A stretch of 64,000 nt of DNA from Diplonema japonicum (GCA_964019335.1 OZ025661.1:496001-560000), one strand, 5' to 3'; counted from the stretch's first letter, positions 22,833 to 63,510 are shown. Notes: generated by a model from the sequence alone, not told the origin. Translations and numbers: made by a program.

Positions 22833-25800
22833 CTAGTCTCTAGATGCTTGGATCAAACCTAAAAGGCTGTGAAGCTGTGGTGTTTGTTTTCTTCCCTCCC
22901 CACTTTTTTTTTCTTTTTTTTCTTTTCTTTTTTTTTTTTGAGCCACACCTCTTGCTCGAAGCACTTGATCTTAACGTCCATTAGGTCGATCTCGCAGATG
23001 GCGCCCAGACGGCTCCCTTCGGAGCCCACCAGCGAGTCAAGGACGGCATGTTCCACGATCTTTTCCTGTAGTGTGGTTGCTGTGGTGTGCTTATGGCATT
23101 CATACGGATCCCTCCGTCTGCGTGTTATCCATGGACTCCACAATCGCTCCCCACTTCCATAGCGCCTCTTGCCACAAGTCATCCACGTACCCCCTCCCTA
23201 GGAGGTCGTAGGTTTTCGCACCAAAACACGTCCGCAGCTCTGCTCGGTAGATGTACTTGGACTCAGGTAGTGTTGTATATGTTGAATGGTTCCCGCCTCC
23301 GAACGAGCAAATTGCAGTAGCTCCACACCTTCTGCACGTCCCTTTGTCTGACGTGTAGCTGCACACACACGAAACCAGCATTCCGCAATCAGAACACGTC
23401 TTCAGCAGTGTCCAGTACCTTTCTGTGCTTGTCTCCGCTGCTTGTAGCAAGTCGGCTTTTGTTTCGCCCGACAACACTAACCCCGTGTCATGCTGTATGC
23501 GTGCGGGGTGGCAAGCACGCTTGAAGGTGTACCACATTCTCTGCAGCTGTTCGTCAAAAGGGATTTCGGTGGAAACTGTGTTCAATGATGCAAAGTTGTT
23601 CGTCAAGATGGCAACCAGGAAGTTCAGCATCAGAAACAGCCCCAACACCACGTACATCCAGAAGAACAAGCCTGTGATGTACATGTTCTCCCTCTTTAGA
23701 GCGTCGTAGTCGTAGTCACCAAGCAGCATCCTTGACAGCGTCGAAACTGTGATGCCAATGTGTCTGAAGTCGTACAGGTTCGTCCCGTAGATGGAGTGCC
23801 CCGTCAGAGCGAAGGCGAAGACAATGTAAGCGAAGATAAACAGGCAGCCGAGGAGTTCTTCCTTGCTCTTGGAGATGGTGCGTGTTAACAAGTTCAACCT
23901 GTTGTTCAAACGGATGAACTTCAAGAACTTCAGGAAGGTGATGATTGTGTTTACGGCATTAGCATACGTCTGTGCCGCGTACAGGTTACTGATCTTTTCC
24001 ATCACGCCGGGATAGACGTCTGGGTACAACAGCCGCACGGAGGCCTGTGTCGAATACACGGCCCACGCGATCCGCAGCCAGAAGACAACAACAAACGTCA
24101 CCAGATTGCCAAGCTCAAGGATATTCCAAACTTGAAAAATGTAAACGTACCACGGTTGTGTGCGCAACGAACGCCGCCAGTCACTGAAAAAACGTGCCCC
24201 GAAATATATGACAAAAGCACCAAAGAAGGAATCGAAGACAGTCTGATCGAGGTGCCCCTTCGACCACAGGGAGAACACCTTCACAGACCATTTGTTGATC
24301 CAACTCCCGCACGAGCCCTCCTCGCTGTAGAACTTGGCGGACACGAAGTTGTCATACTGCGGGTTGTACAAGAAGAACTCGATAGACACCATTCTTGTTG
24401 CGTAGTTGTCCACGAAGGGGTAGTTGTCTGATGCCAGGGCACGCATAACGTTCATCGCCGAGTTGCATGAAACGTTGAAAGGAATTTCAATAGTGTACCC
24501 ACCGCAGTGGTAGGTACTGATATCCCCAAATGTGTATCCACTCAGTGCGTCAGATGTCAGCCCCAAGCACGGTTGGTATTGATAAAGCAAGTTGTCAAGC
24601 GGCACGCCACCCCGCACTTTATGGGGTGTGAACTTGTAATCGGAGAAGACCCTGACAAACTTCTCGTTTAGAGGAAACCAAGGAAGCTGGTGGTTCCGTC
24701 TCAACGGTGTGCTGTAGTCCACGAAGCTCGCGTCCATCATGGTCCAGGGATCTGTGGGCTTGTTTCGTCCTTCAAGAGTCCACCTCACAGGGTCGCGCCA
24801 TGGGCGGTCGTTGGCTGTAACGAAGGTAAATGCCGAAAGACGCGTCATTTGCTTCAGACGCACAATAAGGCTTGACCCTACAGTATCCACCCACTTCGTT
24901 TCCAAGAGACCGTCAATGGCCAGGTTGGGGTTTGTCGAGTTCGTTGTGTTCCCCGACCCGTCAGTGTCGGCCGCTGCCCCGGCACCGCCCAAGCCTCCAT
25001 TCGTCATCCCCAAGTCTACTACGTCCGCCACTTGGCCCCTGAACCGTATCTCGGCTATCTGCACCGCGTCGCTGGCGCCCTCTGTCATCCCTCGTTCCAC
25101 GTCACTGAGCCCGATCACTGAAGCGTCGAAAGGACTGGGTTCCCAGTTCACGTGGTACCCCGAGGCACCCTCATGCCCCCTGATGTCCAAGGGTGTGAAC
25201 TTGTAACGAGTAAAGTGGGCCGTGCTGTTCCCGTCCCTGATGGGGAACCACGGAAGCCTCACACGCCTGCCTGTTGGCGTGGGATACCGCCATGTCTGCT
25301 CACCTAGATTCTTCCACGTCTTCCCGTCGCTGCTGCCATGGATGACCCACGAGACAGGATCGTGCTCATAGGTGCCAGATGCTGTAGTGAAGCTGAAGGC
25401 AGTCGCCGATACGCTGTAAGGGAAGACAATAGTGAGAGAGCCTTTCTCGTAGTCGCGCCAGTCAGTATAAATGTTGGTGTCGATACCAAACATTGGGCCT
25501 GTGTCCCCCGTCCGCTGCACACCGTAGTCGTTGGTGGCTGTGGCACTGAACTTGCTGAGGTTCAGTGAGGCGATGTCCTTGCCAGCGCCACCACCAAGAT
25601 GCAGCTCTGCAAGTTGCACAGCAGCAGGCAGGGGTGCTGTGCGGGTAACTAAGTCGGACCATGCTGTGTACTTCGAGGGGTCTGGGAATCCGAATCGCTG
25701 CTCTGTCTCCTCATTACTAGACGACCAGGGGCCATAGCAGGGGTTCTCCGTATAGAATTCATCGGGATTTTCGAAAAGATAAGTGTTAACAGGGCAGGTG

Positions 25801-26291
25801 TCCTGCCGCACTCTGAGGGAACGTATCTTAAGAGCGCCCAGCAGATAGTTCTGCCCTTGGGCTACAAGCTGCTTGAACGATGTGTCGGGGTTGTTGCATT
25901 CCCATAGGTTGGGTACCAGGACTGCTTCCGTCCAGTGCGTCCAGTCCTCCGCCTTCGTCCCATCTACATGCAACTTGTCAACCTCCAGCTCTGGGGGGTT
26001 GTTCCCCATGATCCTGTCCTTCACCACCCTCACGATGTAGTACTGCTGCGTAATGTTCCTCTCACTAATTGTCCCTGGCAACCCCAGGAAAAAGAACACA
26101 AACATCACCAGAAACGGTACATATTTCATAAAATCCGAGAACAGCTGACTTGCCTGCGCTTTATTACTCAGGTGATCCAGGACCAGTTCTATGGGGACTC
26201 CTGTGCAGGCATGTGTGGCCAAAGTATCGGTGGTTTCTGTGTCACTACCATTGTCATCCGCGACCTGCTTGTCCTTTCCATCTGCTGCCAT
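22833..26291 (-). CDS. Polycystin-2 (TRPP/PKD2)-like cation channel with inserted tandem discoidin-like domains
   Basis: TOP-domain motifs NYLLGALKIRSLRVRQDTC, CYGPWS, YHCGGY, TRMVSIEFFLYNP; channel motifs LKFLKFIRLN, RMLLGDYDY, MLNFLVAIL. Two 3' introns extend the frame to TAG at 22833. Confidence 0.88.
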
Positions 26292-33891: not shown

Positions 33892-34868
33892 TCCTGTGGA
33901 GGCTAGAAGAACAAAGAAGGGGGGGGGGGGATACAATAAAAAATCGAATCACTTCAAAGCAAGGAAGGCAAAGAGAAGGGGGTCATCGTATGCTCTTCTC
34001 CTTTTTTCTTCCCTTGTTTTCTTTTTTCTTCTTCTTCTTTTTTCTTAGAAATTATTTTCTTCTCACAGAATTGGTCTCTTTTTTTTTCTTCCCCTTAAAA
34101 GGGCGTAAAAAGGAATGCTTACTGAGTACCGTATGCTGCAGTGAAGTCCTGCGCAACCAATGTGCTATACAGTTGGGGTGGGGGGTCTCATTTCGTGCTA
34201 AGGAGGTGATGGGGATGATAACACGCCACTGCAGCCACAGGGCATAGGACGCTTGACGTTGGGTATTAACATGTTAGACACAGGGGGGAGGGGGGTATTA
34301 GAAAGACACGAGGGGGGGGTATTAGAGAAATACTAGTTTGGCGCTTTATTTGTTTGTGAGCACAAGCGCTGGAGGGAAAAAAAACCTTTTCTTTGCCGCA
34401 GAAAACAGAACAAAGTGTCGGAAATATTCCTTTTGAACGAAGGAGGGATTAAAGACTATATGAATTTTATAATTCCCTGTACTCAACCGTAGCAGGAGTT
34501 CAAGGGGGGGGGAGGGAGGGGGTGGCGACAGTGTCATCTTTATGATAATTGGTAAATCACGCTATCAAGACATCGACGAGACGAAGGCTTACATATCTAG
34601 GGAACGAAAGACAAAGCAATAATCTACTGTACGTGAGTTATGCTCTGCGCGCTGTGTAAGCTGCACGGCCTCCTTCACGACAGCCATCTTCGAGGTGCAG
34701 GAGGCTTTTTGTTTTCTTTTTTTCTTCATTTATTCTTTCTTTTTCTTGATAAAAGGAGACAAGGAAGGATGTAACACAACAGGTAAAAAAGGAAGGGGAA
34801 ACTTAAAAGGGGGTTCTAAAAAAAAAGAATAATAAAAAACACGCACAAGCGCACGCCACTCGCAAACA

Positions 34869-36559
34869 CTAGTGGGGGGCAACGAACTCCTCGTCAGTGA
34901 TTTCAGTGATGATGCAGTCACTGAGCTCAGCAAGCTGTGTGGTGTATTTGTTGTATGCAATATGTAGCATACCAAATCGGAAATCTGAATGTAAGTATCT
35001 TTGAGCTCTGCATTGTTGTCAGAGATGAGCTTCAGCTCGGCGGTGGACTCGTCCTCATTCCTCTTGGCGCACTTGACGCTCAGCAAATCGAAGTCGCACG
35101 GAGAGTCAACACAGATGTCCATAGTCTTGTTCAAGGCCTCCTTGTCGAACAGGTGCCCACTGAGACGGATCATCATGAAAGGCCTGCTGTCCGTTGCCAC
35201 AGGGATCTGCTGGATTGCCGACTTGGCAAGCGCTTCCTGGTACTGCTTTACGGCGTTTGCTGCCATCTGAGCCGCTTCCTTTAGTGCAGGTGTTGCGCTC
35301 TCGTCATCGACCTTCCACTGAATGAAGTCCGTCGTGCTTACACGGGGGCCTGCAGCAAGGCTGATCAACACCTGGTCCACCTGGTCGTTGCTAATTTGCT
35401 GTGTGTCCGCAAGGTTCTTGATCATGGTGGTGGCGATCTGGATCTGTTCGTCAGGGATGTCCAGGTGCAGTGCCGTGCTCCTCGCCTTGATGGCGTTCCA
35501 GCCAGTGATCCTGTTCGTGATGTTCACACGCCTCTCAACCCCGAAGTCTTCTGGGCAGATGACCTCGTAGGCACCCGGGTTGTTCATCACTGCTTTGGTG
35601 TGTACACCCGCTTTGTGTGTGAAGGCACCGGAGCCCGTCACGATGTTGTTGAATGGGATGGAGACCTGCGAGGCTGCGGACACGTACTTGTCAAGGGAAT
35701 TAATTAGCTTGAGGTTGTACTTCTTGGACACCTCGGCTTTGTTCAATGTGTACAGACGTGCAAGAAGCCCACCCAGAGGCGTGATGCCATTTCGCTCTCC
35801 GATTCCGAGCACAGTGGTGTCGATGTGGGTTACACCTGCCTCGATGGCCATCAAGGAGTTCGCAAGACAGCAGCCCGTGTCGTCATGTGCGTGGAACTCG
35901 ATGCCGACGCTGTCTGGGATGGCCTCCCTCACGGTGCGCACGATCCTGTACGCATCGAGGGGGGTGGCAATGCCCACTGTGTCTGCGATGCCCACCCTGT
36001 CCACGCCCATCTCGGCCACGCCTTTGTACACGCGCAACACATCGTCCATCTTAGAACGGAAGGTGTCCTCGCAACTGAAGCGCACCTCCAGGCCGTGGCT
36101 CTTGACGAAACTGATTGCCTCCTCGGCAAGGCGCAGCACCTCGTCGATGCCCTTCTTGTGGGAGTGCTTAACTAAGATGTCGGAGGTGGCCATGTACATG
36201 TTGACACCGTGCACACCACTCTCGACTGCTGCAGTGACATCCCTCATGTCGCATCTCACGTGCGTCAAGATCTTAGCGTTCTTCATGTTGAGCTCTGCCA
36301 GCGCTTTGCAGTCGCTGAAGGCCTGCGCACTTGCGATGGGGTTCAGCATCTCGATGTAGTCGACACCCAGCCTGTCAAGCATCTTCGCAATGAAGACCCT
36401 GTCCTGCGTGCTGAAATTGCATGTGTCAAACTGCTCGCCTTCCCTCAGTGTGCTGTCAATGATTTTAAACTCGCAGTTCTTCAGCCTGTCCCCGAAGTCA
36501 GCAGGCGGTGTGAACCTCCTTACCTGCCGGGCCCTCTGACCTACTACTCGAAGCATCAT
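34869..36559 (-). CDS. LYS20: Homocitrate synthase (probably mitochondrial) with C-terminal LKR/SDH-linker-like domain (2 exons)
   Basis: IIDSTLREGEQF, ILTHVRC, VRFSCED, IEFHAHDDTGC, LGIGERNGITPLGGL, AFTHKAGVH, RITGWNAIKAR; Arg-rich presequence; intron 34935..34972. Confidence 0.92.
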
Positions 36560-45244: not shown

Positions 45245-45500
45245 GTTGCTTCCTGTGTGGTAAGATTGGATGTTACTACTATTGATCATTCTCCAGAAAT
45301 TAGAGGACTAACAGCAGTTGTGCTGAGGCACAGGTGTTAATGAAATTTAAATAAATAAAAGAGATTGACACTAAGACACTGCCTGCCTGTATATGATAGC
45401 CAGCCCTTCCTCACCTGAGAGAATTCCAGTCATGTGTTGCACATAGATTTAGAACACTTTGCATCTCTACACTTGCCTGTACTTTTTAAACACTGCCAGT

Positions 45501-46112
45501 TTACTCGAACCTCTTCATGCGTGCCTGCTTGATGGCCTCTTCCTGTTTGAAATGTGTTTAGACAATCAACTGCCATCTGCATACCTCGGGACTGAGCGCT
45601 GCTGCCTTCGGGGTGTCGTTTTTCTTAGTGTCGCTCTTCTTGGTGTTGTTGTTCTTTCCGCCTTTGCCTTTTCCTTTTCCGCCCTTACCACCTTTTCCGC
45701 TCTGGCGCGCTTTTTTTGTAGCAGGTGCTACGTCCTCTTCCTCAGCACCAAAGCGGTCCATCCTCCTCTTTCTCGCCTTCTCCTCCTCAGTCCCGAACCT
45801 TTCCACTCTTTCGGCCCTCCTTTGCTTCTCCTGTTCCTTCTCAAGCACCTTTGCTGCGTCATCTTCCTTTTTCTTGGCCTCCTTTGCTGCAGCAGCCTCG
45901 GCACTAGCTGTCGCCTGCTCTGCAATAACGACTTCCGCTTCGCTCACCAAGTTCAGGAGTCCAGCCATCGTCTTCAAAACAGGAGCTTCAGCGGCGGGCT
46001 CGTTGGTGTCCTCTGTAACTCCGGCGGCCTCAGCAACCTCCTCGGCAACTTCTTCGGTGCTTTCCACAACAGGAACCTCCTCGGTCTCGACGGGCTTTTT
46101 TTCCTCTTCCAT
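45501..46112 (-). CDS. Tho1/SARNP/MOS11 C-terminal-like protein (RxxRFG motifs), 2 exons
   Basis: RVERFG, RMDRFG and, after a GTATG..CAG intron, RMKRFE-stop. Confidence 0.6.
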
Positions 46113-46141
46113 TTTTTTTAGGGTTTTAAGACTACATGTTG

Positions 46142-49100
46142 TTATGGGTTAGTACAGAAATAAATAAAATACGGCTTAGGAGTGTAGCTAGCGCTCCCAT
46201 CTAGGAAGGCTAGTGTGCTCTTGTTGACTAACGTAGCCTTCGGCGGGTGGGACTGGTGTTGGGGTTTGATTGTTGAGATGCTCTGCAAGAAGCCGTGAAT
46301 GAGGGGAAACGGCAAACGACTGTTGTCGTCAAGCAAGACAAACTGCTCTGCACGCCCTTCATAGACGAAGCGGCCGGACTGGCCTGAGATGTAGAAGTAG
46401 AAACTTTCGATCTTACCTCGTTTAGCTAGAATCAAGAAAAGCTCAAAGACCCTCTCCACGACATTAAGGGATGAGGGAACGCCGCCTGCACCGAGCCACA
46501 GTGGAAAGCCTTTAAACTCTGGTACTTCTTTTGACTGCAACACCAAAAGGACTTTTTTACCTGTGCTCCTCACGAATGATATCATCAAATCATAAAGATG
46601 GTCATGCTGCAAGGTCTTCCTGCAGATGACGCCCTGCACCTCTTCTTCCCACAAATCGTTGCCTTGGGTGCTGAGGTGGGACTGGATCCGCGAGCTCATG
46701 GTGTCGATTTTTTCCACGAACTCACTGAAGCAGTTCCTCAGAGCAGTGTGAGGAACGCATCCGACATTGACAATGATGTGAAGCAGCAAGAAACCGCCCT
46801 GGCTATTGAGGCCTACCCCGCAGCCGGGAAGTCCTATGTGCTGCTCTTTAAGGATAAAAGAGTACAATTTGAGCTTTTGCTTAGCATCGACAGGGATGAG
46901 GTTCCATATTGGGACGTAGACGTATAGCATGTCGACTTCTTCTTCGTACGTGAGCGTGATGCATAGCTGCCTCACCTGAAGGTGGTAGTTCCTCCCACCA
47001 TCGTAGAAGATGGGTTTCTCGATCAACTTTTGTCGCTGTAACTCCTGCTGCAACGCATCAATCATCTTTTTTAACTTTAGTTTGTTCCCTCTAACCTCGG
47101 CTAAAAGCGTTGCGGCTGGTGCTTCGGAACATATTGGGGGCAGCTGGTCACGCGGCTTGTCGCTTAGGAGGGCATCTACATGTGTTTGATAACCTTCCAA
47201 ACATGTGCCCATTGACGCTATCACCTCACAAAGCGCAGTGCTCCTCGACAGTTCCAACGATATGGACAGGTGCATCGCTAGCTGGTTGGACCATGTAAGA
47301 GTCACAGTGCCACCGCACACCTGCCTACCAAGATGGTTCCCTTCCATTACACACTCGTAAAGGGCGATTTGTTTTCCAGGAGGGAGCGTGTGCATTTGCA
47401 GGTTGGGAAGAATAAGAGACATGACATGCAGCTCCTCCTTGATCAGTGTGACCTGATAAGTTCTTCCGTTCACTCTTACTTCACACGATCTGTTCAGCAA
47501 CTTCGGCGAAGGTGCATCATTCGCCTTGCTAAGCTCATGCAGTAAGTCCATCGCACGCGACTTGTAGAAGATCTGCTTTCTGCGCGTGTAGTCGGTTCCT
47601 ACCTTTGCAAGCATCTCGTTGGTTTCGAACACTTCGTCCACTTGAGGGCTGAAGACTGTCTTTGTCTCACACCTGTAAGGACAAACAAATACGGAGTCAT
47701 AAGCAGGGCCCTGCTTGCGCTGCTGAGCCCCGAGCATTCGTGACACACAAAACAGGCAGAACAGATGACCACATGCAAGCCTTGAAGGCAGTAACAATGT
47801 GTTCGTACATATCGTGCACTTGTAGCAGTCGGGGACTTCTATTGACATGCGGTCTTTATGTGGAAACTCTTCCGTCAGAAGCTTAAACATCACATCATCT
47901 TCATTGTGTTGTGCGCAGTCAGCAGGACGCATTTTGCCATCGCCTTCGATATTTCCACAGATTTTAACGCGCATGACTCCGTGGTCCCCAGAGGCACGCA
48001 GTTCCGTGTGTTCTTTACTTTCCCCTATGTCAGCAGGTGTCTCCCATGGGAAAGGCTTACCGCCAATAGACAAAAGGTCTCTCACCAGATTGACGTCTCC
48101 TAAGTTCACAGCTGTGTGAATGGCAGCATCGGTGTCATGGTTTTGGACATTGAGATGGCACCCCATTGCCATCAAGAGTCGCATGCATTGTCGCCTCTTG
48201 TTACTCACAGCCAACATTAAAGGAGTGTTCCCACTTGGATCCTTGATGTTTATCATGTACTTGTTGCTGATGACTGTCAAGACCCTTCTCGGCATGATTG
48301 TACATGGTTTCAGTGATGTAGGATAGTGAAAAGTGCTAAGGTGGTGCATGACTGGGACCATGGTCTCTGCATTGCTTGCATGGGGAGACAGATACTCGGA
48401 GTACTTCAGGCACTCCGTACAAGATGAACTGTATTACGTAAGTGGATAGTAAAACATATACCTTGACTTCATCCAGGTCTGGACAACACCAAGTTCACAG
48501 GGATTCCACGTGTCAAGGTGTTGAGGGATACAATCAGGGTCAGCTCTGGGTCAGTGAAATTAATGGTTAATCATACCCTATGAGCATCTTTACGATGCCC
48601 AACTCGGAGGGGTCGGAAAACTGGGAATAGTGAGAGATGGATTCGAGGGCATCATCCTGAGAACCGGCAAGGACGCATGCCTGCGAGATGGGGTGCAGCA
48701 TGGTGGAAGGGTGCGCAAGACGTGCACCATGCTTCAAGAGCTTTTTAACAATCTGAGCATGATTTTTATGACAGGCAAAGTACAGCGGCGTGTATCCGTT
48801 CACCTCATGAACATCAATCAGTACGTTGTTCTCAAGGAGCACGGTCACAACATCTACGTGACCGTTCCACACACTCAAGTGAAGCGCCGTCCGTTGCTTC
48901 AAGTCAGGGAGATCCAAAACTTCCTTCACCAAGCACTTCGGGTGTTTGGTAATAGTGAGCCTTGAAAGAAGGTTTTCACTCTCTTGTCTTCGCTTTAAAG
49001 TTCGGCCAAGCCAGTTTAGGTATTTCTTCGTGCTGTCAGCACCTTCGTAAGCAAGAATCTTAACCTCTTCAGCATTCAAGGTGTCTCCCTTCCACAAGTT

Positions 49101-49373
49101 CTCCGGCTGCATGTTCTTCAAAAGTGCAATAGCATCACGAAGACCGTTATGATGGTTGTAGACAGCAAGGCTGTGGATGATATTCTGCAGGTTTTTCGAG
49201 TGCGTCACTTGAGGATTATGAAGGACAAGGAAACTCAGCAAAACACCGTAGCCCTCTTTGTGTAGCGTCTGTATTCCAATAATTGAGTTTAGGGGTGTGC
49301 ATACCTTTAAGATTTTTGTTATGTCCCACCCGGACCGTATCTTACAGTGGAGGTTTGCATATTGGGGTTCCAT
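46142..49373 (-). CDS. Ankyrin-repeat + RING-HC + two CesT-like domains protein (3 exons, ~1050 aa)
   Basis: Introns 48546..48576 and 48429..48461 join ORFs 48567..49373 and 46142..48361 in frame (KMLIG|ADPD...). ANK motifs RTALHLS, YTPLYFA, NTPLMLA; RING CTIC..CGHLFCLFC..CPYRC; two CesT-like repeats. Confidence 0.8.
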
Positions 49374-49466
49374 GATGACCCCTGCTGTAAGTATGGATAG
49401 GGTTAGTGGTCGGATTAAAAAGAAGAAGAAAAAGATACGAGAACTGAAAAAAGGGAAGTTTTGAGA

Positions 49467-50018
49467 TCAAAGGGCAAGAAGCAAATGATTGTGAACAGTA
49501 CCGACAACATTACTGGGCGGGCATGTGGCGGTCCGAGTGGTTAAGTCGATCAGAATAGGGGCAAGGAGCCGAGGTGGGTGGCTGAGAACATGTGTGGTGT
49601 GATAAGCGGCCGCACAATAAGAATGAGCAAGAGCGAGGGCAGGGGGTGGTAGAGAAGGAGGGATGAATGACTCGATGCACTCAGTGCGAATATTCCACTG
49701 CAAATACTGAAGAATAATTTCCTGTGCAGCAAATAGATCTTGCCAATCATCATCGTCGTCATCATCATTCAATAAACTAGGCAACAGGGACGCTGCTCCA
49801 CTTACCTTACACACAAGTAACACAATACCCTCCTCCAAACGGTGCACGCCTTCCAGTACTTTCAACCCTGCTTCCTTTACAAGCAATACAATATTGAAAC
49901 TACACCTTCCTCTTACTACAGCAGGGAGTTCAGACTCCTCACAGATCTCTTCAGCCCGTGCCAGGATGCCACTCACTGACCATGCTACTTTCCGTCGCTT
50001 CGGGCGGCTCGCATCCAT
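49467..50018 (-). CDS. Divergent cyclin-fold-like protein
   Basis: LLVCK...DLFAAQEIILQYLQWNI and HPPRLLA resemble the cyclin box and C-terminal cyclin repeat. Confidence 0.5.
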   Translation of the reverse strand: MDASRPKRRKVAWSVSGILARAEEICEESELPAVVRGRCSFNIVLLVKEAGLKVLEGVHRLEEGIVLLVCKVSGAASLLPSLLNDDDDDDDWQDLFAAQEIILQYLQWNIRTECIESFIPPSLPPPALALAHSYCAAAYHTTHVLSHPPRLLAPILIDLTTRTATCPPSNVVGTVHNHLLLAL

Positions 50019-50109
50019 TGCTAGTTCGGAGCTTGTGGAAGAAATAGTAACATGAAATAAGAAGTTACTGAAGAGATACAGAAAAGACTTTAACATCGGC
50101 TGCCCCCCC

Positions 50110-50240
50110 CAGGGCTAGGCCGGCAAGAAACGGGAAAACATTTCCGTTTCCGTTTCCTTATCTGTTTCCTTATTTTTCAGATGACTTAAGGAACGGCCCC
50201 AAAGTAAGGAAACGTTTCCGTTTCCGTTTCCTTATTTTCG
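50110..50240. mobile_element. Isolated hAT-like transposon end
   Basis: CAGGGCTAGG followed by clustered AAACGG/CCGTTT subterminal repeats, as in Ac/Ds-type ends; no convincing partner end found. Confidence 0.4.
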
Positions 50241-51052
50241 AAAGAAAGCTTGGAAGCTTCGACATCATTCTCATTAAGCTTCCCTGCCGCTTCCTTATGC
50301 TTCGTGCATCAGCTTTTCTGCTTGCCTGACCCGAAGTGGTTGGTTACCTTGCTTATAAACTACCTAAGATCCATTGTATTAGATACACTGTTTGTCATTG
50401 GCGCGATAAGGGTCAGGAAAAAATAAGCTTTCAGGGGGAAGAAAAAACTAAAGAAGGGCACCTTCTTTCGTTCGCTTTTTTGTTTCTCTTCCTTTTTTTT
50501 TTTTTTTAACGACGTGCATTAAGACTGTGAAGTCCCCAGTAAAACTTAATTCCCGGTCCCCTCCCCCTTTTTTTGCGAAAGAAATTTAAAAAAAAAAAAA
50601 AAGCGCAAAAAAATGAACACCTCATATCTCTAAATCCCGTTTTAGCACTCCTTGTGCTCGGAGGAAACAAAAATTTGCTATCTTTTTAAACAAAGGCTAC
50701 AATGGCCTCGTTTCGCGACTCTCTTCAATGATTGACACTGCTCGGTCTGTTCTTGAAAGGAGAGTCCTCTCCCGAGAATTGCACCTAACGGGTTTTCAAG
50801 GTAAAAGTGCTACCATAGAAATCCCAAAAAACACTCCGGGTACCTTGCCACGAGTGCCAAGGCGACCACAATTTTCCCCGAAAATCTCTAACAGTGCTAG
50901 AATTCTGGAGAAAGATTTTCCCAAAATTCCTCAGGCCACTTTAGAGCAAGTCCAGGATTGACTAGAAGGGTTTTAGAGATGCGGGGCGTAAATAAATCGA
51001 ATCAGCAGTATTTTTCTTTTCATTTCTCTTACATTTCTATTCATTTCTTCCT

Positions 51053-53704
51053 CTACATGCAAACTGCATAGCAGTTGGTCTCCGCCGCTTGAGGGATGGG
51101 GCAGAGGAATGGATTCTGAGACAGGTCACAGTTTGGGTAAGTGTTGTAAGGTGTGTGCAAGGGAAGCGAAGTCAGCTTGTTTTTGTTGACGTTCAAGACC
51201 GAAAGGTTGCGGAGAGAGGAGAAGTCGGGAATGGAAGAAAAACTGTTCTCACTGAGCCACAGGTATCTCAGCCCCTTCAGCCCGTCCAAGCTAGGGACTG
51301 CTCCGGAGATGGCGTTGTGACTGAGTTGGATCTGCTGCAGCGAGCCAACTCCGGCCAGACTGTCTGGGAATGTCCCGGAGATACTATTCTCGCTTAGCCT
51401 CAACACCTCCAGCCTTGTTAGGCCGCCGAGGGCGTCGGGCAGTGTACCAAGAAGGTTATTATTTGAAAGGTCAAGGCCAATAATGTGTCCATTCGCATCG
51501 CAGGTCACCCCTGCCCACGGGTCTTGGTAAGGCGACGGCGACCCAACAGGTGCAGGCGCCCCACAGGGCTGGTACTCAAGCCCGCTCAGCCAGTTGTCAG
51601 AAGCCACCCAGTTCGGTCCGCCTGTTGATTGATACAGAACCTCAAGAATTTCATGTTGTCCAGGAGGGAGTGGTGTCGGGGGTGGCAATGGTGGTGCCGT
51701 TGGAGACGGGGGAAAGGCACCACCACACTGAACAGGGACTGGATTCACAACGGGGTATTGTGATGTGTAGTGGCCAAAAAGGTTCAAGGGGTTGACCGAG
51801 GAATCAACTGCCACACCCCAGGAAGTCGACGCCAGGGATGGGATGCTATTAGCCCACCACCCGAAGGGGATCCAGGATCTTGTGTTCGCGTACAGCAGCG
51901 AAGGGTGGTCTGCAAAGGTATTCTGCGTGGGTGTTGATGTGAGGAGCTCTCTTTCTATTGAGGAGCGCATGAAGTCAGCATCTGCGATGATCTTCTGCAC
52001 TGTGTTCTCGTCATACCCCGACTCGTTCGCGATGACTCTCGCCAGGTTCACTGCCCCCAGTGTCCATTCTGCGGAGAACACCTCTTCGATCAAGGCTTTT
52101 GTGGCGTTCACATATCCTGCTGCCTGCTTGTTCGTGTTGATTTGGTTAGAGAATCCTTTTGCAACATTCACCGCTGGCTCGTTTCCTTGTCTCAGAAACA
52201 CGATGTATGCGACAGACCCTCCCAAGGGTGCGGCCGTGACGTTCAAGATCACAATGTACTCCATCGACTCACCTGAGATGTACGCCACCTTGTCCAGGAA
52301 GTCTTTCTTATTGAAGTCTTCTACAGGAGTTGTCACGTAGACGCCCACTGTAGGCGATGCTTCCACAGATGAGTTGGCGATGTACTTCGGTGTTGTGATT
52401 GTTGTGTATCCCACGCCTTTAGCAGACCCGTTTGCTTGCAATCCATACCCTGAAAGGTTCTTCAGCGTTTCCCAGAGGTTCTTGGTGGTGTTTGGACCGA
52501 GGTGTGCATCGATCTTTCTCGGCCCCAATGTGGTGGCGACCCATGTTTGGCAGTCGACAGCGAAGTCAGGAGAGTTTGCCTGACCCCATGACCAGACACC
52601 GGTTGTTTTGTTGTGTGTGCCTCCTTGTCTGAAGAAGACCCCGTTCCATGCAGAGAGGAGGAAACTTTCCAGGCCGGAAATCATGTCCTCTACCTCGCAG
52701 CGGAGCTCGTTGTATTTTGGTTTGTATGCAAGAACGTGCCGCAGTGCCATCAGTCCTGCGTGGAGGCTTGCTTGATTTTCGACAGAGACAGTTGCCCCCG
52801 CGTCTGGATTGGGTGAACCTGCATAGTAGAATACATTATTCGGTGCATAGTAGACGGCGCCGTGACCAGGTTTGGTCACGTCAGTGATTGGAACTTTCAA
52901 AGATCTGAAGGCGGGGACTGCATTGATAGCCAGCTGGAACTCGGGGGCGTCTTCTGGGATCTGTGAAATACTTCCATTCAAACGTCTTACAGCCGTGTTT
53001 AGAGGGCCCAATACCAAGGCCCATGCATTCTCTCCAAGAATCGGTTTGTAGTCATTCCACGTCCAGAGGTGCTTTAAGTCAGGGCAACGTGCATCCACCG
53101 TACCTTGAACCGCCCAGAAGTCTGCGACAAGACGAAACAGCAATGCATTTTGTTTTGAAAGACTTTCCATCTCATCCCCATAACAGATGCCACATGCCCC
53201 GTTCTGTGTTGGGTCCACACATGCTCCTGTAGAAAGGTCACCTTTGCACGGTGCATGGCCCTTGATATCTCCCAGCTGTGCTGTGCGTGCTTCCAACAAA
53301 ATGTTCCGATAATATGCTTCAGTGTTGTCGAAATTCCCTAAGATCCCACTTGCTATACCCCATACTGACCCATCATATATGTCCAAACCGAGAGATGAAA
53401 TCAGCTGTTCTGTCTGAAATGTGTATGCATTCATAGCTGTTGCATTGACAAGCCCTCCTGGTGCAGTGGAGCTGCCTTTGCACAAGTATATATAGGTCCC
53501 TTCTGTAAATTGTTTCAGTTTTAGAACATCTGGTACGTTGTTGAAATAGTCACGTGGCCAAGGCATGTATGACAGTGGCATCTTCGATCCACTTGCCACA
53601 TTGTTCTGGAGAAACCCTTGGAACCTTACCGGATCTGGGACGTCTAAGTTGCTGAACTTTGGAACTACACCCACAGCATACAGTGTTAGTACAATGGTTA
53701 ACAT
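51053..53704 (-). CDS. Secreted protein: large uncharacterised domain + Pro linker + plant-type LRR domain
   Basis: Hydrophobic N-terminus MLTIVLTLYAVG; LRR cap LYQSTGGPNW...WAGVTCD and LxLSxNxLxGxLP repeats; intronless. Confidence 0.85.
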   Translation of the reverse strand: MLTIVLTLYAVGVVPKFSNLDVPDPVRFQGFLQNNVASGSKMPLSYMPWPRDYFNNVPDVLKLKQFTEGTYIYLCKGSSTAPGGLVNATAMNAYTFQTEQLISSLGLDIYDGSVWGIASGILGNFDNTEAYYRNILLEARTAQLGDIKGHAPCKGDLSTGACVDPTQNGACGICYGDEMESLSKQNALLFRLVADFWAVQGTVDARCPDLKHLWTWNDYKPILGENAWALVLGPLNTAVRRLNGSISQIPEDAPEFQLAINAVPAFRSLKVPITDVTKPGHGAVYYAPNNVFYYAGSPNPDAGATVSVENQASLHAGLMALRHVLAYKPKYNELRCEVEDMISGLESFLLSAWNGVFFRQGGTHNKTTGVWSWGQANSPDFAVDCQTWVATTLGPRKIDAHLGPNTTKNLWETLKNLSGYGLQANGSAKGVGYTTITTPKYIANSSVEASPTVGVYVTTPVEDFNKKDFLDKVAYISGESMEYIVILNVTAAPLGGSVAYIVFLRQGNEPAVNVAKGFSNQINTNKQAAGYVNATKALIEEVFSAEWTLGAVNLARVIANESGYDENTVQKIIADADFMRSSIERELLTSTPTQNTFADHPSLLYANTRSWIPFGWWANSIPSLASTSWGVAVDSSVNPLNLFGHYTSQYPVVNPVPVQCGGAFPPSPTAPPLPPPTPLPPGQHEILEVLYQSTGGPNWVASDNWLSGLEYQPCGAPAPVGSPSPYQDPWAGVTCDANGHIIGLDLSNNNLLGTLPDALGGLTRLEVLRLSENSISGTFPDSLAGVGSLQQIQLSHNAISGAVPSLDGLKGLRYLWLSENSFSSIPDFSSLRNLSVLNVNKNKLTSLPLHTPYNTYPNCDLSQNPFLCPIPQAAETNCYAVCM

Positions 53705-53851
53705 TTTCGTGTTTCTCTCCCTCTTCCCTTTGTTGTGCTGTAGCATACATTACAAGGGGATTAAGAAGGAGAAGAAGAAATACATTCCTCAATTTATAAA
53801 AGTTGGGAGAATGCTTGAATGGCCAAGAACCCTAGCCAAACAAAGAAGAAT

Positions 53852-60089: not shown

Positions 60090-60168
60090 TATTTGTTTTT
60101 TTTTTTATTTGTTATTTATTATTTTTTCCTCCTTCAGCATGCACACAGGGTCCGGCTGTTGGAGGGTA

Positions 60169-63100
60169 ATGTTGCAAGATGTTCAGCAGCCGGACGACTC
60201 GGCCATTGACACAGGGGACACAGCATTCATGATTCTGGCAACAACGTTTGTGTTCATCCAGACACCAGCAATGGGGATCGCACAGGCAGGGTTGCTACGC
60301 AAGAAGAACGTGCTATCGATGATCACTCAGACGATGGTAGGGGTTAGCTGTGGCTCGTTATTATATGCCTTGGTAGGCTTCAGCATGCTATGGGGCGAGA
60401 GTATACACGGGCTCATTGGACGCCCCACACACTACCCTATGCTGTTCAACGTGAGCCTGACGAAGCCCTTTCCCTACGGGAATGCTACCAGCATCCCTGC
60501 CATGACGTGGTGTGCCTTCCAAATGATGTTTGCACTCATGACCCCTGTCATCGTCACTGGTGCCTGGGCAGAGAAGTTCTCCCTTATCGGCTTCATAACC
60601 TTCGTCATTGTGTGGCCACTTCTTGTTTACTACCCGCTGGCACACTGGTTGTGGCACCCGGATGGCTGGATGATGAAGTTAGGTGTACAAGACTTTGCGG
60701 GAGGGATGGTAATCCACGTTTCTGCAGGTGTGAGCGGACTTGTGGTCTCAGGGATGTTGAGGCAGCGTCGGTACATGGAAACTTCCTCGAAAGAGCAGCA
60801 CAACCTGCCCCTCTTCGCAACAGGCAGCTTCTTCATCTGGGCAGGTTGGTACTTCTTCAACGGAGGATCCGCTGCTGCTGCAGGACTCCAGGCGGCGACA
60901 GCGATGATGAACACACACCTCGCAGCTTGCGCAGGGTCCTTCGTATGGATGATTCTCTCCTACTGGGAAAACAAGAAGTTTGCTTTAGGGTATTTTGTAA
61001 ACGGCGCTCTGTCCGGCTTGGGTGGGATCACGGCAGCATCAGGCTACACGACACCGCAGGGCGCGATGTGCATCGGGGCGTGCGCTTCATACGGGGCATA
61101 CCTCTCGATGGGGTGGGTGCAGAAGAGCAAGACCTTCGATGATGTGTTAGACTGCTTTGCCTTGCAAGGCGCTCCGGGGATGGTAGGATCAACACTGCTC
61201 GGTGTGTTCGGCTGCTCCACAGTTGCAGGTAAGGACGGACTCGTGTACGGTGGGGACGGCACCCTTCTAGGACTTCAGTTAATGGCGGTGGCAGTGACAA
61301 CGTGCTATGCAGCAGTGTGGACATATATACTAATCTTTGCCATGCAGTACTTTTTAAAAGAGAAGATAGAAGTAAGCGACGTGGATGACGCAGTGGGGTT
61401 GGACTTGTGCCAGATAGGAGAGACAGGCTACGACGGGTCGCTCTTCGATGAACAAGACAAGATGCTGCTTGCTGACAAGCTGTGCGAGGCAATCGAGAAG
61501 GGGGACTTCAAGACCTTCATGTGGTTGAAGGAGACCATCTACGACACAATGCCCGATATCTCGATGGGGCAGCGCAACAGAGCAGGCCGCAACGCATTCC
61601 ATGTCATCGCAAGCTGCCACGCAGGGCTCTTCTGGACTGAGGACGACGCCCTGCATGGGCAGCTGCTGGCACAGTTCAATACTTTCGATGTGAAGAGCGA
61701 AGCGTGTGCCAAGTGGCTTGCAGAAAACAGCGAGGCTGCCAAGGTGGTGCTTGTCCTGCTCGACTACAAGCTGTGCATCAACACAGCCGACAACTTCAAG
61801 AGGACACCTCTGCAGTACACCATGGATGTACAGCAGAACAACTCGTGGCAGGAGGCAAAGCGTTCGAGAAGAGCACACGAGCACGAACTTGCAGCATTCG
61901 CCTCGTTCTTGCGGTTCAAAGGCGCACTTACAAATCCGGATGCAGCCATCTCTGCACTTAACACCGCAGCTTTACATGATGACCTTGACAGGCTCAAGGT
62001 GCTGCTGCAGTGGCCTGGTGTCGTTGACCTCGTTGACTACGATTCACGGTCGGCGCTGCACGTTGCGTGCGAGGAATGGATCGACTGCTTGAAGACCGGG
62101 GCAGTGTCCCAATCGAAGAAGTGCACTGTACAGTTTCTCTTATTTAAAAAGGCGCACAGAGAACAGGTTGACAGATGGGGACTCCTCCCGAGGGAGATGG
62201 TAGAGCAACGCATTTCAGAACTAAAATCAGAGATCACGGACTTGGAGGTATCTGGCGATGATGCCCGTGCTAAGCTGTCGGAGGTGGAGTCGCTGGAGGA
62301 GTTGCAACTGATGCTTGCAACCGATTCCGCGGAGTTGGACAGCCCAGAGTTTTACATGCAGTCAAGTAGAAAGGAGTGCCCCCACTGCCGACAGTCTGTG
62401 GACCGTAGAATAAGTGGTCAAGTAACCGTGACAGACCTAGGCGATGATGAAGGCATCAACAGCGAAGTAGCACCAATCCTACGCGATGAGCACGTGCTTG
62501 CCGTCCAACTGCCGAAGTCCGTCTGCGACCAGGCCCTGAGTTATGCGTCGAGCAGCATGGGGCTCAAGCCTTTGATGCGTTTAGGTCTGAGCACCTACCA
62601 GTATGCGACAATCAAGGACGACAGTGGGTTCACGCTCCTCCATGTCGCCTGCCTGCATGGCCGCCTTGACATCGTCACATGGCTCGTAGGAAGCGGTGGG
62701 GTGAACCTACAGGCTACAGGCTTGTTGGCAACCACTGACAACTATGGGCACTCCCCTCTGTTCACAGCCATCACCGCTTGCCATCTGCAAGACACCATCG
62801 CTAGGGTCCTCAGGCAGGCTTATCGTGAGTCCCACAATGACGAAGACTGGCCTGCTGATCCCAACCTGGGGTTTTTGTTGTGCTCAGCAGCGAAGGAGAA
62901 TGACAAGCCGTTCCTAAACGCCTTGAGGGTATCAGGGTGCATGCTACACGATGCAGACTACGATGGGAGGACAGCACTGCACCTTGCTGTGTGCGAGCAG
63001 CACGTGGACCTTGTCGACTGGCTGATTGCAAACGACACGAAACACATGCAGCTGTTGGCGCGCGACAGGCGTGGGAACACACCAATCGATGACGCGCTAA

Positions 63101-63510
63101 TCATGAAAAAGTACTTCATGCGGAAGGTGAGGAACAGGGAGGTGCACACGAAGGAGGATGGCAAGAAAGCACGTGTCATCTACAGCAGGCTGCGTGCGGC
63201 CTGCCTGATGGTTCCATCGGCGGGCCCGAAGCGCTTGGTGGGGTTCGACACCGTGATCACGGCCTGTGACGACGCTGCGTCGCTGAAGGAGCGCTTTGAG
63301 GACCACCCATACCGAGGGCAGCATGCTGCCATCCCTAGCACTGTGGGGTCCTTCTGTGGCAACCAAGACCAAAACCTGCTGCAGCTCACCACCGATGAGC
63401 TCGAGACGTTAGTGCAGAGCTTAGTCCGCGCAGAGCTGCGGAAGTACGGCAAAAGCGGGGGTCTAGCTTCGGGAAGGAGCACACCAGCAACAGTATGCAT
63501 GTCGGAGTGA
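60169..63510 (+). CDS. Ammonium transporter (Amt/Mep family) fused to ankyrin repeats
   Basis: FQMMFA, HWLW, DFAGGMVIH, GWYFFNGGS, GLD...GETGY; C-terminal ANK motifs DYDSRSALH, GFTLLHVAC, DYDGRTALHLA, DRRGNTP; single 1113-aa frame; ATG after a CACAG|G acceptor. Confidence 0.92.
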   Translation: MLQDVQQPDDSAIDTGDTAFMILATTFVFIQTPAMGIAQAGLLRKKNVLSMITQTMVGVSCGSLLYALVGFSMLWGESIHGLIGRPTHYPMLFNVSLTKPFPYGNATSIPAMTWCAFQMMFALMTPVIVTGAWAEKFSLIGFITFVIVWPLLVYYPLAHWLWHPDGWMMKLGVQDFAGGMVIHVSAGVSGLVVSGMLRQRRYMETSSKEQHNLPLFATGSFFIWAGWYFFNGGSAAAAGLQAATAMMNTHLAACAGSFVWMILSYWENKKFALGYFVNGALSGLGGITAASGYTTPQGAMCIGACASYGAYLSMGWVQKSKTFDDVLDCFALQGAPGMVGSTLLGVFGCSTVAGKDGLVYGGDGTLLGLQLMAVAVTTCYAAVWTYILIFAMQYFLKEKIEVSDVDDAVGLDLCQIGETGYDGSLFDEQDKMLLADKLCEAIEKGDFKTFMWLKETIYDTMPDISMGQRNRAGRNAFHVIASCHAGLFWTEDDALHGQLLAQFNTFDVKSEACAKWLAENSEAAKVVLVLLDYKLCINTADNFKRTPLQYTMDVQQNNSWQEAKRSRRAHEHELAAFASFLRFKGALTNPDAAISALNTAALHDDLDRLKVLLQWPGVVDLVDYDSRSALHVACEEWIDCLKTGAVSQSKKCTVQFLLFKKAHREQVDRWGLLPREMVEQRISELKSEITDLEVSGDDARAKLSEVESLEELQLMLATDSAELDSPEFYMQSSRKECPHCRQSVDRRISGQVTVTDLGDDEGINSEVAPILRDEHVLAVQLPKSVCDQALSYASSSMGLKPLMRLGLSTYQYATIKDDSGFTLLHVACLHGRLDIVTWLVGSGGVNLQATGLLATTDNYGHSPLFTAITACHLQDTIARVLRQAYRESHNDEDWPADPNLGFLLCSAAKENDKPFLNALRVSGCMLHDADYDGRTALHLAVCEQHVDLVDWLIANDTKHMQLLARDRRGNTPIDDALIMKKYFMRKVRNREVHTKEDGKKARVIYSRLRAACLMVPSAGPKRLVGFDTVITACDDAASLKERFEDHPYRGQHAAIPSTVGSFCGNQDQNLLQLTTDELETLVQSLVRAELRKYGKSGGLASGRSTPATVCMSE

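Follow-up and report, generated by a model that had tools for sequence, protein, structure and literature searches.

A predicted ankyrin-RING ubiquitin ligase with a tandem pair of class I chaperone-fold repeats in Diplonema japonicum

What would a chaperone fold of bacterial type III secretion do inside a eukaryotic ubiquitin ligase, and whose proteins would it hold there? This question is raised by a gene of Diplonema japonicum, located on the minus strand at positions 46142..49373 of the stretch of DNA analyzed here (the window; 64,000 nucleotides, GCA_964019335.1 OZ025661.1:496001-560000). The initial annotation described the product as an ankyrin-RING E3 ligase with two tandem CesT-like domains and proposed it as a decoy for bacterial effectors. 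The analysis points to a real, conserved, and ancient ligase architecture, which has apparently not been described previously; it was absent from the literature searched, a search with most subscription papers outside its scope. Regarding localization data, CesT terms had no occurrence in the four supplementary files of PMC12697944 or in the 12 files searched among the 15 of PMC9981465.

Transcript and domain organization

The reading frame runs from the ATG at 49373 to the stop codon at 46144-46142. Four coding exons (49305..49373, 48577..49268, 48462..48545 with 84 nt, and 46142..48428) are separated by three GT..AG introns, namely an in-frame intron of 36 nt (49269..49304), one of 31 nt that takes out the stop codon of the first open reading frame (48546..48576), and one of 33 nt (48429..48461). 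Among the four runs compared, all three introns are absent from a single X8 contig of 3122 nt that spans approximately 49385 to 46187, including the ankyrins, the RING, and both repeats; X8 was taken as RNA because it is spliced, with no run being recorded as RNA. The X2 contig also lacks the 36-nt intron, and X3 represents the unspliced form. The two introns proposed initially are therefore real and the RING and CesT parts lie on one transcript as claimed, but the 36-nt intron had been missed. The predicted single spliced protein of about 1050 aa holds, with its size being 1043 aa by the three-intron model (1055 aa by the two-intron model). As a single frame free of stop codons (48433..46142) encodes the RING as well as both repeats, their linkage is independent of splicing.

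At the 3′ side, the contigs end at 46187 (X8), 46174 (X1), and 46178 (X2), leaving the final 10-14 codons and the stop codon uncovered. At the 5′ side, the X8 alignment starts at approximately 49385 and is preceded by 23 unaligned letters, equal in length to the leader joined to the next gene at 46132; from this we infer a trans-spliced leader at the 5′ end of the ligase transcript. The leader at 46132, presumably the euglenozoan spliced leader, has 23 nt in X8 and X1 and 20 nt in X2. Together with the short cis-introns and Flectonema as the nearest named relative, it is indicative of a diplonemid. Fusion of the ligase to the downstream open reading frame via an intron-like segment (46172-46132) was considered and rejected, since no such joint occurred in the four runs and the leader was found at 46132 in three of them. 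The ligase stop codon is located just 10 nt before this leader acceptor, and the final ligase codons coincide in part with the pyrimidine tract of this acceptor as well as with a branch-like TACTAAC motif (46132-46187).

The ligase gene has one copy within the window, amid ordinary genes. The downstream trans-spliced gene (45500-46132, minus strand) has a 42-nt intron and a charged, Tho1/SARNP-like C-terminus without a Pfam match. Upstream lie a separate trans-spliced gene (49438-50021, minus strand) encoding 183 aa without a Pfam match, a multi-copy repeat element on which many diverged contigs are stacked (50110-50260), and a gene for a protein of about 890 aa that is probably secreted and combines an unannotated domain at the N-terminus with leucine-rich repeats at the C-terminus (51053-53749, minus strand). 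Elsewhere, the window encodes an ammonium transporter of 1123 aa with fused C-terminal ankyrin repeats (60139-63510, plus strand), a lysine-pathway fusion of homocitrate synthase followed by an LOR/SDH-type domain (34730-36559, minus strand), and a polycystin-type channel with F5/8-like inserts in an extracellular loop (23100-26291, minus strand).

The ankyrins, the C3HC4 RING, and the two related repeats of the initial annotation are all present. The first ankyrin cluster is encoded by exon 2 (best Ank_2 match at approximately 48929-48717), and the second lies in exon 4 (48068..48265; Ank_2 E 2.6e-8), followed by the RING (aa 486-535; 47669..47818), which scores above the cut-off of Pfam zf-C3HC4 and matches RING1B and RNF168 with Z 9.2. 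In the XB3/XBAT31 ankyrin-RING E3 ligases, ankyrins likewise form the N-terminal part and precede a C3HC4 RING; in contrast to these, the D. japonicum protein has a RING with variant spacing, to which the chaperone pair and the caspase-like domain are added, and its score with the RING_XB3-XBAT31 profile is below threshold (18 bits vs a cut-off of 50). The RING is predicted to be a ubiquitin ligase. Its fold has eight zinc ligands, the last pair of which shows the non-canonical spacing CPxRC (CxxxC); this spacing recurs in 9 of 10 further proteins for which a RING motif is shown, isoform P0024 aside. Such a shared deviation would fit a RING that is a structural or dimerizing zinc finger in an adaptor protein, the ligase activity of the long relatives being supplied by a U-box, which is clear in P0006 and P0009 and weak in P0004. 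This explanation is improbable, however, as no other region is as conserved as the RING (35%), its structure superposes on those of active RING E3s, and the short diplonemid forms keep it without any U-box.

An alpha/beta domain that had escaped the initial annotation follows repeat 2 across the family. In the long relative P0009, the corresponding residues (700-930) gave Peptidase_C14 clusters in 28 of 30 Atlas matches (best 0.94). With a caspase-family profile built from 7 of 13 extracted stretches, P0009 gave E 3e-5, and the window copy gave E 0.61, which is no match on its own; the profile-profile score was 31.4 vs 13.9 or less in 30 shuffles, at a probability of just 18%. The resemblance of P0009 to metacaspases and caspase-like proteases (PF00656) appears to cover the first half of their fold. 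Unlike in these enzymes, the catalytic His at the SGHG position is missing in all 10 rows having the domain, and the window copy is truncated. Through alignment to P0009, the C-terminal region (approximately aa 890-1001; 46271..46606) is read as a degenerate caspase-like half-domain, a truncated pseudo-caspase that is likely inactive. Among 151 Chlamydiota genomes searched, 27 contain caspase-family genes.

Predicted fold of the tandem repeats

Repeat 1 (approximately aa 573-703; 47165..47557) and repeat 2 (approximately aa 728-868; 46670..47092) are connected by a conserved linker of about 24 aa (47093..47164), and the motifs quoted for each of them in the initial annotation are present. They share 20% identity over 128 aa (E 3e-4). 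The Pfam profile for CesT (PF05932) detects repeat 1 with 26.3 bits, above the gathering score of 22, and the pair together with 37.8 bits, but repeat 2 on its own stays under the cut-off with 16.2 bits (E 0.012). The window's repeats gave no match in NCBIfam, and searching the sequences of solved structures with the repeats, or with a profile of them, produced no meaningful match. The structural evidence comes from an AlphaFold2 model that starts at the RING and comprises 573 residues, for which a 17-row alignment was used as input (mean pLDDT 81.6, pTM 0.72); single-sequence prediction reached a pLDDT of 38.6 only. Model residues 71-390 show pLDDT values above 87 in each 10-residue block, with the sole exception of residues 341-350 at 81. 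The top 10 Foldseek matches to this model were without exception type III secretion chaperones. In comparison with 48,161 chains, repeat 1 was closest to YscB (Z 12.6, rmsd 2.7, 124 aligned; SicP, Z 11.0), and repeat 2 to VecA (Z 12.3, rmsd 2.2, 129 aligned; ExsC, Z 10.7). Each repeat is thus predicted to adopt the class I chaperone fold with three helices and five strands, consistent with the original assignment of both to the CesT family. Members of the fold from outside secretion (PA14_16140, T110839, DR_1245, and AmyR) also gave Z values of 7.7-10.4, and a common fold does not demonstrate a function.

Outside type III secretion, the fold is used by the TY-chaperone superfamily (YbjN, TY-Chap1-3), in which the two-copy member TY-Chap2 provides a tandem precedent, according to the available sections of PMC9503650; these proteins are prokaryotic and have no ubiquitin ligase, in contrast to the protein described here. 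Bacterial clusters of 285-296 aa may be further two-copy forms, with scores below 0.9 that make them a lead only. In the D. japonicum model, a predicted helix (residues 77-114 in model numbering, by DSSP) continues from the RING into repeat 1, and the linker between the repeats is modeled with high confidence and contains an invariant or near-invariant Pro. A tandem pair mounted on a rigid RING helix is, as modeled, the layout of a substrate receptor.

The repeats share the predicted fold, the Pfam match, and Slc1-like motifs with the class I type III secretion chaperones (CesT; YscB, VecA, SicP, SycH, ExsC, and Slc1/CT043), from which they differ in being tandem, non-acidic, and fused to a RING without a secretion system. 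Class I chaperones are small stand-alone proteins (15-20 kDa) in the accessible text of PMC3576375, whereas the repeats are embedded in a eukaryotic protein of 1043 aa. Their pI values of 6.6 and 8.7 also depart from the acidic trait of class I (pI below 6), and in the relatives the pI exceeds 6 in all 10 slices of repeat 1 and in 8 of 10 slices of repeat 2; the single euglenozoan CesT domains and the Slc1-like protein are acidic (pI 4.9-5.4). Judging from these neutral-to-basic sequences, client binding may have been changed or lost. Loss would leave the repeats as a scaffold that keeps the fold without free clients, in which the linker may fill the groove in cis, the pair positions the RING and the pseudo-caspase, and the ankyrins select the substrate as in XB3-type ligases. 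The lost acidity, the long diverging branches of the repeats, and the linker, which is as conserved as the repeats (27% vs 27% and 26%) and confidently modeled, are in line with this possibility, and ankyrin-RING ligases in general work without an extra receptor. Nevertheless, both repeats, including the conserved helix-2 and glycine-loop motifs, are kept in 10 of 10 full-length relatives, and a mere scaffold is considered unlikely.

Distribution and bacterial relatives

A family scan of 1.84 billion representatives yielded 23 matches, of which 10 contain ankyrins, the RING, and the repeat pair; another member is truncated at the N-terminus, and two further matches are fragments. Members were found in Flectonema neradi, the nearest named relative, and in Namystynia karyoxenos, Euglena gracilis, and Entosiphon sulcatum; therefore, on comparison of these sequences, the layout predates the diplonemid-euglenid split. 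The E. gracilis member (795 aa) stops before the caspase-like part. Five long forms (P0004, P0005, P0006, P0009, and P0013; 1678-2057 aa) carry further shared domains beyond it, and the Entosiphon member has an insert with a weak jacalin match; a DUF4384-like tail suspected in the long relatives had no Pfam match. P0009 is apparently AT-rich, and P0011 seems atypical. Word-seeded homolog searches, a weak method, found nothing or P0011 alone. A viral origin of such relatives gained no support, as loci for P0009, P0011, P0013, or P0004 were absent from the viral contigs searched and no viral fold match was convincing; metagenome scans for P0009 and P0014 gave no match, and P0017 had no plasmid match.

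The other 10 matches comprise four ubiquitin-like-CesT proteins (including those of Diplonema papillatum, Papus, and Leishmania), a CesT-PDZ protein of Artemidia, two TPR proteins, and three stand-alone chaperones. The TPR proteins (P0014 and P0020) contain two Slc1-like/CesT domains each, one together with NB-ARC and the other with OTU. Of the single-CesT euglenozoan proteins (P0016, P0018, P0019, P0022, and P0023), four are fusions with the ubiquitin-like domain at the N-terminus, and one is the fusion in which CesT precedes PDZ. The Leishmania matches agree with the earlier statement that CesT-annotated proteins exist in kinetoplastids; such "Tir chaperone (CesT) family" proteins of kinetoplastids and diplonemids have been annotated and mentioned in PMC7105377, and one is listed in a table within the available part of PMC6247020. 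They have the same domain, grouping with repeat 1, but as a single acidic domain without a RING. The ubiquitin-like-CesT layout resembles that of a proteasome shuttle and, together with the RING protein, may represent a CesT-based degradation toolkit.

Among bacteria, the stand-alone relative P0017 had 431 matching stretches in genomes, and the 80 kept are mostly titled chlamydiae, the others being labeled Verrucomicrobia or carrying other bin labels. The family profile matched an Slc1-like chaperone in 297 of 300 scored Chlamydiota genomes, with all of the 150 matches listed being stand-alone frames of 162-221 codons, as compared with one of 201 genomes of a control phylum, that one being the seed bin. 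The Slc1-like protein shares sequence motifs with the repeats (E 1e-8). In one genome (G009), the match is flanked by an isoamylase-type gene on one side and on the other by ssb and then a leucyl aminopeptidase gene, which we take to be the gene order of CT042-CT045; the name Slc1/CT043 rests on this assumption. The resemblance to Slc1 suggested initially is thus well founded, and by sequence it is the Slc1-like chaperone of chlamydiae that stands closest among bacterial proteins.

This kinship gives some room to a chlamydial effector chaperone turned on its owners. A single-chain Slc1 mimic joined to a RING and a pseudo-caspase might act as a broad sensor of the chaperone-binding signal of type III secretion that destroys injected effectors or triggers defense, an idea that is plausible yet less likely than not. 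In such a decoy role, type III effectors injected into the host cytosol would be captured by the pair at their unfolded N-termini, and the RING would mark them for destruction or signal via the pseudo-caspase; this, too, is possible but rather unlikely. It is favored by the near-universal occurrence of the chaperone in Chlamydiota and by the gene order agreeing with that assumed for Slc1. As far as the available portions of PMC3930595 and PMC3576375 go, Slc1 binds several early effectors, and a single conserved receptor could recognize many effectors by their common beta-motif. A chlamydial symbiont lives in Rhynchopus euleeides, according to the accessible part of PMC12171722. In contrast, the available text of PMC11909080 credits the Holosporacean symbionts, which are frequent in diplonemids, with type VI and not type III secretion, and that of bioRxiv 10.64898/2026.01.29.702485 reports that genes recently acquired from chlamydial symbionts were not found in Rhynchopus.

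The phylogeny also bears on this point. In a tree of 60 rows (excluding isoforms P0008 and P0024 and fragments P0010 and P0012), repeat 1 forms one starred group (100/99) and repeat 2 another (97/93), indicating that the duplication is older than the diplonemid-euglenid split. Repeat 1 and the five single euglenozoan CesT domains come together (87/99), and a separate group comprises the 19 Slc1-like rows (88/91). Since the euglenozoan domains do not nest among these rows, a chlamydial donor is not demonstrated. Both this position and the clustering of repeat 1 with host CesT domains retained in Leishmania speak against a decoy. Support at the root is low (70/45), and the tree has several long branches; in clade tests, neither a single clade of all euglenozoan-type domains (p 0.374) nor repeat 1 with repeat 2 (p 0.456) was rejected, which is no proof of either grouping. 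The sequences suggest that the CesT domain entered Euglenozoa once and early, was domesticated, and was then duplicated inside the ligase.

Candidate clients of the ligase

Our preferred explanation, with a probability of roughly 45%, is that the repeat pair serves as a peptide-capturing substrate receptor for the RING, with mainly host clients that become ubiquitinated. Host clients are preferred in view of the early domestication of the domain and of its link, even in Leishmania, to ubiquitin-like domains. Class I chaperones form acidic dimers and recognize the N-termini of effectors via a common beta-motif, as described in the available sections of PMC3930595 and PMC3576375. By analogy, the two repeats would pack as a single-chain chaperone dimer and bind extended peptide segments of clients through the beta-motif. 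The captured client, most likely the host's own, would be held beside the RING, which is predicted to recruit the E2, for ubiquitination; in the model, a rigid helix joins the RING to repeat 1, and the caspase-like domain would be a scaffold with no protease role. The non-canonical RING ligand pair, the loss of acidity, and the weak tree root count against this explanation. The company of a pseudo-caspase, a U-box, and a weak jacalin match also counts against host clients, since it looks more like immune or death signaling than routine quality control.

The same pseudo-caspase and U-box company, as well as the related domains in the NB-ARC/TPR proteins P0014 and P0020, fit the capture of bacterial effectors. 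In the integrated-decoy immune receptors of plants (NLR-IDs), a bait domain is fused to a response module; in contrast to these, the ligase has no NB-ARC, and its bait would mimic a bacterial chaperone instead of a host target. The repeats show no sign of rapid change, as 12 of 14 coding differences between strains in the repeat pair are silent (18 of 26 in X1 and X2 overall, after seven non-coding or other-gene rows were dropped, with many calls from low-depth contigs). This, the loss of acidic character, and the lack of local expansion in the window argue against a decoy. As strains with chlamydial symbionts are in culture, the idea of effectors as clients is testable. If the clients are injected effectors, the ligase would show how marine protists that are abundant keep chlamydial symbionts in check, and in this part of the eukaryotic tree a decoy that mimics the pathogen would be among the first molecular innate-immune receptors.

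Whatever the clients of the substrate receptor preferred here, a bacterial secretion-chaperone fold occupies the substrate-receptor position in a predicted ligase. The finding also offers a handle on the CesT-annotated proteins of kinetoplastids, which would belong to one domesticated family that is repeatedly tied to ubiquitin-system domains.
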